Part shown: positions 1 through 217 of the stretch, piece by piece
Position numbering within the stretch: the first letter of the stretch is position 1
Layout of the letters: every line of letters starts with the position of its first letter
NCBI RefSeq assembly: GCF_003334765.1
Contig: NZ_QOWT01000149.1
DNA length: 217 nt
From: Escherichia coli
GTDB taxonomy: Bacteria; Pseudomonadota; Gammaproteobacteria; Enterobacterales; Enterobacteriaceae
Direction: 5' to 3' (one strand)
Made by a program: the position numbers and the translations under genes
The notes under the pieces: model-generated
Told to the model about the DNA's origin: nothing
Database searches by the model: none
What the model saw: the letters and a program-made list of their open reading frames with translations, nothing else

Positions 1-63
1 CCGGACCATCTGATAGTCGGTGGCAGCCAGGTTTTCTCCTTTGCGGAACACGGTCTGCTTTAA
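1..63 (+). CDS. yeeS: 3' end of a RadC-like (JAB/MPN-domain, YeeS/YfjY-family) protein; 5' end lies upstream of the window
   Basis: Frame 1 reads without stops from position 1 to TAA at 61-63, giving PDHLIVGGSQVFSFAEHGLL*. This matches the C-terminal pattern I recall for RadC-family proteins (DH-L/I-I-V/I-G ... S-F-A-E-x-G-L/W-L/I). The symbol is assigned by synteny with the downstream DUF987 gene, not by sequence identity; the paralogs yfjY and ykfG cannot be excluded. Only 20 codons are visible. Confidence 0.75.
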   Translation, partial: PDHLIVGGSQVFSFAEHGLL

Positions 64-64
64 C

Positions 65-91
65 CCGTCACCGTCACCACCACATCACACC
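65..91 (+). repeat. C/A-rich short tandem repeat tract in the intergenic spacer (CCGTCA x2, then CAC/CA units)
   Basis: Direct reading: CCGTCA at 65-70 and 71-76, followed by CCACCACATCACACC at 77-91. The tract is almost devoid of G and T. Function, if any, is unknown. Confidence 0.4.
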
Positions 92-117
92 TGTTTTCAC
101 TTTTATCTTCTGTCTTC

Positions 118-122
118 AGAGG
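118..122 (+). promoter_or_regulatory. Shine-Dalgarno / ribosome-binding site for the downstream DUF987 gene
   Basis: AGAGG at 118-122 lies 9 nt upstream of the ATG at 132-134, which is acceptable spacing for base pairing with the 16S rRNA anti-SD. Confidence 0.55.
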
Positions 123-131
123 TATCACACC

Positions 132-217
132 ATGAAAATCATCACCCGTGGTGAAGCCATGCGTATTCACCAACAACATCCGACATCCCGTCTTTTTCCG
201 TTCTGTACCGGTAAATA
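132..217 (+). CDS. yeeT: 5' end of a DUF987 / YeeT-family small protein of unknown function (about 73 aa in full-length homologs); 3' end lies downstream of the window
   Basis: ATG at 132-134 is preceded by the AGAGG SD and is the first canonical start in this frame. The frame is open to the window end, giving MKIITRGEAMRIHQQHPTSRLFPFCTGK plus a partial codon. This matches from memory the N-terminus of E. coli YeeT (MKIITRGEAMRIHQQHPTSRLFPFCTGKYRWHG...). The paralog ypjJ cannot be excluded from this fragment alone. Confidence 0.85.
   Translation, partial: MKIITRGEAMRIHQQHPTSRLFPFCTGK

Follow-up and report, generated by a model that had tools for sequence, protein, structure and literature searches.

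Gene content of the window

The window, by which we mean the whole 217-nt stretch of Escherichia coli contig NZ_QOWT01000149.1 that was analysed, holds the start of a gene for a small DUF987 protein of the yeeT family, preceded by the 3′ end of a RadC-like JAB-domain gene (Table 1). The DUF987 frame is opened by the ATG at position 132, stays open to the window end and reads MKIITRGEAMRIHQQHPTSRLFPFCTGK; the full coding sequence was located at 12132–12353 of locus L001, and its product is identical to the annotated 73-aa protein WP_000692323.1, in agreement with the length of about 73 aa given in the first-pass annotation of this DNA. The 28 DUF987 residues encoded in the window scored 37–46 bits by themselves against DUF987 hidden Markov models (HMMs), and the 20 C-terminal residues of the upstream gene, which in frame 1 of positions 1–63 read ...PDHLIVGGSQVFSFAEHGLL*, scored 26.6 bits against the JAB HMM built in this analysis. 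HMM scoring of all frames found no match to anything for the remaining reading frames of the window, and two mechanical open reading frames (ORFs), at 20–154 on the plus strand and 60–179 on the minus strand, were set aside as unsupported; short direct repeats in the window appear to be due to chance.

Table 1. Features of the 217-nt window
Feature	Positions	Strand	Details
3′ end of the JAB gene (yeeS/ykfG/yfjY family, RadC-like)	1–63	+	last 20 codons and TAA stop (61–63)
Spacer between JAB and DUF987	64–131	+	68 nt, C/A-rich
Shine-Dalgarno-like AGAGG	118–122	+	9-nt gap to the ATG; evident on inspection
Start of the DUF987 gene (yeeT family; WP_000692323.1)	132–217	+	first 28 of 73 codons plus 2 nt

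The start of the DUF987 gene had been described as well defined, and comparison with relatives bears this out: of 117 loci in other genera, 111 have ATG as the corresponding start codon and 113 have a Shine-Dalgarno (SD)-like motif upstream of it. The gene was also found to be under purifying selection, with a median ratio of nonsynonymous to synonymous substitution (dN/dS) of 0.097 (Nei-Gojobori method; 3,506 pairs from 100 distinct coding sequences). The DUF987 gene is real and of an expressed type, and its identity is settled, the first-pass annotation being right as to where it lies, on which strand and what it is; it is an ordinary, already annotated gene, with a function that has no established assignment.

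Scans of the spacer between the JAB and DUF987 genes revealed no sigma-70-like promoter or terminator, and there was no Rfam match. A 6-bp hairpin at 107–122 would cover the SD motif; the RNA fold (z = −1.63) was no better than that of shuffled controls. The distance from JAB stop to DUF987 start is 68 nt in this E. coli allele versus about 9 nt in most relatives from other genera, most of which have a JAB stop codon (TGA) that overlaps the DUF987 SD motif (…CTG TGAGG TATTAC ATG).

Family membership and predicted fold

The full 73-aa product matched Pfam PF06174 (DUF987) over all 65 model positions (1–65; E-value 2.2e-39, 133.7 bits) and PHROG 14887, labelled 'unknown function' (E-value 2.7e-38). 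By profile, length, motifs and fold alike, the window product is a member of the DUF987 (YeeT/YkfH/YpjJ) family. This family is small, with 178 representative clusters matching at an E-value of at most 0.001 among 1.84 billion proteins, and includes clear full-length members down to about 34% identity. Two motifs, CxGKYxWxGS and ERRxDxxGPY, were found to align across 44 members down to the same 34% identity and, together with A9, Y29, G62 and Y64, are the best-conserved positions. The proteins are basic, with an isoelectric point above 8 in 35 of the 44 members and a median net charge of +5; conservation of this charge argues against an acidic DNA mimic.

AlphaFold2 modelling of the 73-aa protein from the 44-sequence alignment gave a mean predicted local distance difference test score (pLDDT) of 97.2 and a predicted template modelling score (pTM) of 0.84. 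The model predicts a single small basic alpha+beta domain arranged strand-helix-strand-strand-strand, with a strand at residues 2–4, a helix at 6–15 and long strands at 19–30, 49–59 and 62–72. A structure prediction followed by a search for structural homologues had been proposed in the first-pass annotation; in the libraries searched, none was found outside DUF987 itself. Foldseek against AFDB50 matched only DUF987 entries, one of them from Desulfatibacillum, before the next match at an E-value of 0.5, and TM scores to full-length members were 0.88–1.0, with 0.95–1.0 for AFDB entries at 36–67% identity. The BFVD structure search with the model found nothing, and no significant match to the 73-aa protein was detected among PDB sequences, NCBIfam or PADLOC. 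As far as the searched libraries show, the modelled fold would be specific to the family.

Long proteins that had seemed to contain DUF987 were examined and rejected. The putative polyvalent proteins P0080 (1,077 aa) and P0098 (4,115 aa) were repeat-rich false positives, and the long 'fusions' P0001 and P0011 were chimeric or mis-called ORFs. A natural tandem of two DUF987 domains was found in one 159-aa ORF (P0043; L147 6001–6480) and may point to a dimer as the functional form.

Gene neighbourhood in Escherichia coli and other Enterobacterales

Megablast of the window against 5,426 complete E. coli genomes found it in 4,797 of them (about 88%), at a median of 3 copies and a maximum of 15. 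The whole 217 nt is 100% identical in many E. coli chromosomes, and at these loci the genes are annotated as 'JAB domain-containing protein' or 'RadC family protein' and 'DUF987 domain-containing protein' (yeeS/yeeT). In E. coli D8 the gene order is GTPase, Ag43, DUF932, antirestriction, JAB, DUF987, cbeA, cbtA, DUF5983, DUF957 and DUF4942, with all genes of the block on one strand; a second strain has the same core. Terminator-like hairpins were detected in the E. coli block only before DUF932 and after DUF957. DUF987 stands mid-way in a same-strand, operon-like block composed of DUF932, an ArdB/KlcA-like antirestriction gene, JAB, DUF987, CbeA, CbtA and DUF5983/DUF957/DUF4942, and the neighbours originally named for it, a RadC-like gene upstream and the CbeA/CbtA toxin-antitoxin (TA) pair downstream, are indeed those of the E. 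coli locus. The same place between a yeeS-type JAB gene and cbeA/cbtA is occupied by the three family members of E. coli K-12, YeeT (CP4-44), YkfH (CP4-6) and YpjJ (CP4-57), which differ from the window product in no substantive way. The block is carried by enterobacterial integrative islands and large conjugative plasmids; on an IncHI plasmid it lies inside a long same-strand array that includes an orphan methyltransferase gene.

To place this order among close relatives, we used a GTDB scan of one genome per species, made with an 11-sequence alignment; the best 80 of 113 matches were retained, a sample biased to close relatives, and the neighbour-family profiles (JAB, CbeA, CbtA and others) were built from these Enterobacterales loci. 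The 80 loci, at 62–71% identity, all belong to genera of Enterobacterales except for two contigs labelled Chryseobacterium. The latter (L031 and L051, from Chryseobacterium sp. 18061 records) carry a typical enterobacterial block, and the assembly is probably mislabelled or contaminated. The order JAB, DUF987, CbeA, CbtA was found in essentially every one of the 80 loci that a contig end does not interrupt: 78 have JAB upstream, the other two offering only 163 nt of sequence there; CbeA is present in 79, the remaining locus ending 91 nt after DUF987; and CbtA is missing from one, a further locus being a mis-ordered ORF call. Similarly, 37 of 40 IMG/VR loci have this order, and two more are cut through DUF987 yet have CbeA/CbtA downstream. 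The last (L126, at 49% identity) has no CbeA/CbtA pair; it is a phage contig of another kind, with genes for an HNH endonuclease, a metallophosphoesterase and a dUTPase. Linkage to the pair thus holds in nearly every untruncated locus of Enterobacterales relatives at 59% identity or more, and this synteny is the linkage of a whole block of 8–10 genes.

DUF987 genes in phages, plasmids and metagenomes

A tblastn search of DUF987 against 50,697 phage records identified the gene in 69, at 46–49% identity, nearly all of them Klebsiella phages of the genus Drulisvirus (lytic Autographiviridae podophages). About 243 records contain a core Drulisvirus protein at 80% identity or more, and about 28% of them have DUF987, which is an accessory gene of the genus. 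The gene lies 2.4–3.5 kb from the left end, within a run of small genes that precedes the primase gene, and a DinI-like gene is located upstream of it. The homologues, exemplified by KpV71 gp07, fHe-Kpn01 gp08 and Ou2 gp8, are small and share the same motifs at 46–49% identity. They differ from the E. coli gene in that they are encoded by strictly lytic phages, have no RadC, CbeA or CbtA gene nearby and overlap the next gene. Features of this region lie at 3033–3287, 3303–3542 and 3721–3930 of the fHe-Kpn01 locus (L151) and at 2122–2385 of L086. The g10 product of fHe-Kpn01, encoded two genes downstream of DUF987, is a 69-aa protein that is toxic to E. coli and has no known homologues. The Drulisvirus order of DUF987, a small gene and a toxic gene loosely echoes DUF987-CbeA-CbtA; no sequence similarity was found. 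A further viral scan with an alignment of the Vibrio-type DUF987 described below found nothing.

Two Vibrio plasmids were found to encode DUF987 at 43–46% identity, in both cases within same-strand arrays of small genes: (i) the pVA249 array contains DUF2787 and VWA genes and adjoins tra genes; and (ii) the pIDH5335-2 array contains DUF3150, DUF2787 and an orphan C5 methyltransferase. Ten metagenomic contexts, whose DUF987 representatives are at 34–45% identity, had varied neighbours, including dCMP deaminase, YuA_Gp49, GmrSD_N, a Zn-ribbon protein, an ISL3 transposase, DNA methylases, Mrr_cat, RadC and HipBA. In one of these (L083) the dCMP deaminase and YuA_Gp49 genes adjoin DUF987, and on a 40.6-kb contig (L147) the tandem DUF987 gene is surrounded by orphan DNA methylases, Mrr_cat and HipBA, with RadC 1.3 kb away.

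When recorded Pfam matches and our own HMMs (E-value of at most 1) were combined, CbeA/CbtA was found next to DUF987 in none of the 14 distant lineages formed by Drulisvirus, L126, the two Vibrio plasmids and the ten metagenomic contexts. This carries the reservation that the CbeA, CbtA and JAB HMMs, being derived from Enterobacterales, might overlook relatives that are very divergent, and that most of these contexts are short metagenomic contigs. In the same 14 lineages JAB was detected only in L147, and a DUF4942 fragment only in L148. An all-against-all comparison of the neighbours revealed no downstream partner gene shared among the distant loci, and the only recurring families were C5-methyltransferase, RadC and DUF4942. 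Orphan DNA (cytosine) methyltransferase genes near DUF987 were located at L088 6292–7671, L150 23–514, L147 368–2044 and 10732–12111, and L219 14705–15973, which are otherwise unrelated plasmid and metagenomic contexts. The first-pass annotation had DUF987 'invariably linked' to a toxin-antitoxin pair; this stands for nearly every untruncated locus of the Enterobacterales islands and fails at the level of the family, since DUF987 genes are frequent without an adjacent pair in phage, plasmid and metagenomic loci.

CbtA loci and co-evolution of the block

The linkage was also examined in the reverse direction, by searching IMG/VR for CbtA with an alignment of that protein. DUF987 was present in 44 of the 56 untruncated CbtA loci identified, and the other 12 have no intact DUF987. 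In most of these 12 the TA pair comes straight after JAB, and the block also exists in a form that lacks DUF987. In nine loci (L170, L173, L193, L203, L204, L211, L212, L214 and L216) JAB and the toxin-antitoxin genes adjoin without space for DUF987; of the pair, L212 and L214 yielded CbtA alone. A tandem duplication of CbeA/CbtA was seen at L159 2593–4373, with no DUF987 or JAB within 2.5 kb upstream.

Co-evolution was analysed in the 93 loci (among L003–L125) that have all five genes of the antirestriction-JAB-DUF987-CbeA-CbtA block. DUF987 was found to be the slowest-evolving protein of the block, with a mean pairwise distance of 0.19 compared with 0.30 for antirestriction, 0.31 for CbeA, 0.32 for JAB and 0.35 for CbtA. 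Spearman correlations between distance matrices were 0.43–0.64 over all gene pairs; those of DUF987 were 0.60 with CbeA, 0.48 with CbtA and 0.58 with JAB, and the comparison pair JAB-CbeA reached 0.64. Covariation of DUF987 with CbeA/CbtA was no higher than that of non-adjacent gene pairs in these loci. This pattern of distances is that of a block inherited together and not of a specifically co-adapting pair. Neither two-way co-occurrence across the family nor co-diversification with toxin or antitoxin, as looked for in a third component of a TA system, was observed.

Published experiments with DUF987 proteins

Three published studies bear on the activity of DUF987 proteins. The five-gene constructs yafX-ykfG-ykfH-yafW-ykfI and yfjX-yfjY-ypjJ-yfjZ-ypjF of Wen et al. 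2017 were as toxic as toxin plus antitoxin alone, and the study found no autoregulation of the operon by either the toxin or the antitoxin (PMC5371832). Ragunathan and Vanderpool selected YeeT, YkfH and YpjJ because a BLAST search with relaxed parameters matched them weakly to the Fels-1 antirepressor FsoA, and observed no induction of dicBp, no filamentation and no growth inhibition with any of them (bioRxiv 10.1101/2023.04.14.536235). Spruit et al. 2020 screened 22 fHe-Kpn01 proteins of unknown function for toxicity to E. coli, among them g08, which did not figure as a toxic candidate and was not detected in virions (PMC7291057); g08 was identified in this analysis as a DUF987 homologue. The remaining literature mentions of DUF987 or of these gene names were incidental only, which upholds the earlier statement that the family has no established function. 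Papers on riboswitch prediction and acid tolerance that name ykfH and ypjJ were set aside, as they give only operon names or re-sequencing calls.

Interpretation of the role of DUF987

The contexts of the family that lack a TA pair, the reverse count of CbtA loci, the position of DUF987 as the most conserved gene of the block and a confident fold model without relatives are what this analysis adds. We tentatively favour the possibility that DUF987 is a stand-alone establishment or early-phase factor of mobile elements, which would act on a conserved host target. It would be made when a mobile element enters or takes over the cell, and may bind a conserved host component of incoming-DNA handling (restriction, repair or damage response, or a nucleic-acid intermediate) through the invariant ERRxDxxGPY hairpin and the CxGKYxWxGS strand, without harm to the cell; we infer this binding-inhibitor mechanism. 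Such a protein would not be a dedicated part of the TA pair, and its Enterobacterales synteny with CbeA/CbtA would reflect inheritance of the whole block. An establishment role is suggested by (i) the company of DNA-entry genes, namely ArdB/KlcA-like antirestriction, orphan methylases, RadC-like JAB, DinI-like and nucleotide metabolism genes; (ii) the location in the putative early block of lytic phages and in plasmid arrays; and (iii) the harmlessness of the protein when overproduced. The slow evolution of DUF987 fits a conserved host target. In addition, the domains that occur in the polyvalent 'entry' proteins of conjugative elements include those of RadC and CbtA (PMC5512222); the enterobacterial block as a whole could therefore serve for establishment, which would explain the synteny without a mechanism that joins DUF987 to toxin and antitoxin.

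A similar company, in same-strand arrays of small genes, is kept by the leading-region genes of conjugative plasmids, such as ArdA, ArdB/KlcA, PsiB and orphan methyltransferases (concept in PMC11541004 and PMC5512222). DUF987 differs from the leading-region proteins in that it has no sequence or fold similarity to them and is basic rather than an acidic DNA mimic; it did not appear in the searched supplementary tables of the leading-region study.

Several points weigh against an establishment role. No DUF987 protein has a demonstrated activity, and searches by sequence, PHROG, PADLOC and fold gave no similarity to known anti-defence, DNA-binding or enzyme families. Early expression in Drulisvirus is deduced from genome position alone, the Vibrio arrays were placed by their neighbouring genes, and the shortness of most distant contigs and the Enterobacterales origin of the HMMs, through which divergent CbeA, CbtA or JAB genes could be missed, apply here as well. 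An argument from the company of antirestriction genes and methylases is a weak one, and the perfect adjacency to JAB in Enterobacterales, with a JAB stop often overlapping the DUF987 SD motif, equally fits a role linked to JAB.

In the latter case DUF987 would be a partner or modulator (a specificity, inhibitor or substrate-presenting subunit) of the upstream RadC-like JAB protein, a putative nucleic-acid-processing enzyme, and adjacency to the TA pair would be incidental. JAB is immediately upstream of DUF987 in 78 of the 80 genome loci and in nearly all IMG/VR loci, the overlap of stop codon and SD motif in most relatives suggests translational coupling, and the distant locus L147 has RadC in its vicinity. 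A precedent is provided by the small protein DUF3085, whose gene adjoins that of RadC on broad-host-range plasmids and for which a complex with RadC has been predicted (PMC12826799). DUF987 and DUF3085 are both small proteins without an assigned function, encoded beside a RadC-like JAB gene on mobile elements, but the families are unrelated, and a RadC neighbour is lacking for the majority of distant DUF987 genes: JAB/RadC is absent in 13 of the 14 distant lineages, including all Drulisvirus and both Vibrio plasmids. Moreover, at least nine loci have JAB followed by the TA pair without DUF987, and the distance correlation of DUF987 with JAB is no higher than that of JAB with CbeA. An AlphaFold2 model of JAB-(GGGGS)6-DUF987 from 26 paired rows gave a pTM of 0.65, about that of one well-placed larger domain alone, a value at which complex and independent domains are inseparable without the predicted aligned error. 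We consider a partnership with JAB unlikely.

An accessory or regulatory role in the type IV TA system, as suggested in the first-pass annotation, appears very unlikely by comparison. DUF987 would here be a third component of CbeA/CbtA, for instance the missing transcriptional or post-translational regulator, and the proposal draws on its place directly upstream of the pair in essentially all Enterobacterales relatives and in 44 of the 56 CbtA loci, as well as on the lack of autoregulation (PMC5371832), which leaves a regulator formally missing. However, the pair is beside DUF987 in none of the distant lineages, and 12 CbtA loci do without an intact copy; the five-gene constructs containing ykfH or ypjJ neutralised toxicity no better than the antitoxin alone (PMC5371832); DUF987 diverges at about half the rate of CbeA and CbtA, with no special covariation; and the gene is mid-operon and encodes a protein whose model has no recognisable DNA-binding fold. 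Equally improbable is a regulator of the mobile element itself, that is, an antirepressor or transcription factor for island or prophage genes. The protein is small, basic and non-toxic, and YeeT, YkfH and YpjJ had been noted as weak matches to FsoA; yet all three failed to relieve the DicA repression of dicBp or to cause filamentation (bioRxiv 10.1101/2023.04.14.536235), and a DUF987 profile searched against 430 Fels-1 ORFs gave a best match of E-value 0.25 (6.2 bits), which is not significant. On both of these results the FsoA-type (GfoA/FsoA/Rem) antirepressor lead was rejected. Structure searches likewise found no fold similarity between DUF987 and known repressors or antirepressors, and the family is also present in strictly lytic podophages, which have no lysogeny repressor.

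Returning to an establishment role, a bolder form of it holds that DUF987 is a new counter-defence or host-takeover class with its own fold, common to podophage early regions, plasmids and island antirestriction modules, that neutralises a conserved host component of DNA surveillance or repair. We regard this form as somewhat unlikely; if it were true, most E. coli genomes would hold a reserve of such factors in their roughly three silent copies. The occurrence of DUF987 in putative early regions of lytic phages and on plasmids without a TA pair shifts interest to counter-defence and establishment and makes TA read-outs less promising. The matter is of some breadth, as about 88% of complete E. 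coli genomes contain DUF987, usually more than once, and it is the most conserved member of the antirestriction/RadC-like/CbtA/CbeA block; if an activity were found, three y-genes of E. coli K-12 and an accessory gene of Klebsiella phages of the type used in therapy would gain a role.

Extended DUF987 proteins

In P0100 (L152 971–1435 and L153 564–1028) and in P0129, DUF987 is followed by a charged C-terminal tail of about 80 aa that is probably helical. In both L152 and L153, the DUF987 gene lies directly downstream of a gene for a 174-aa GmrSD_N (DUF262) protein.

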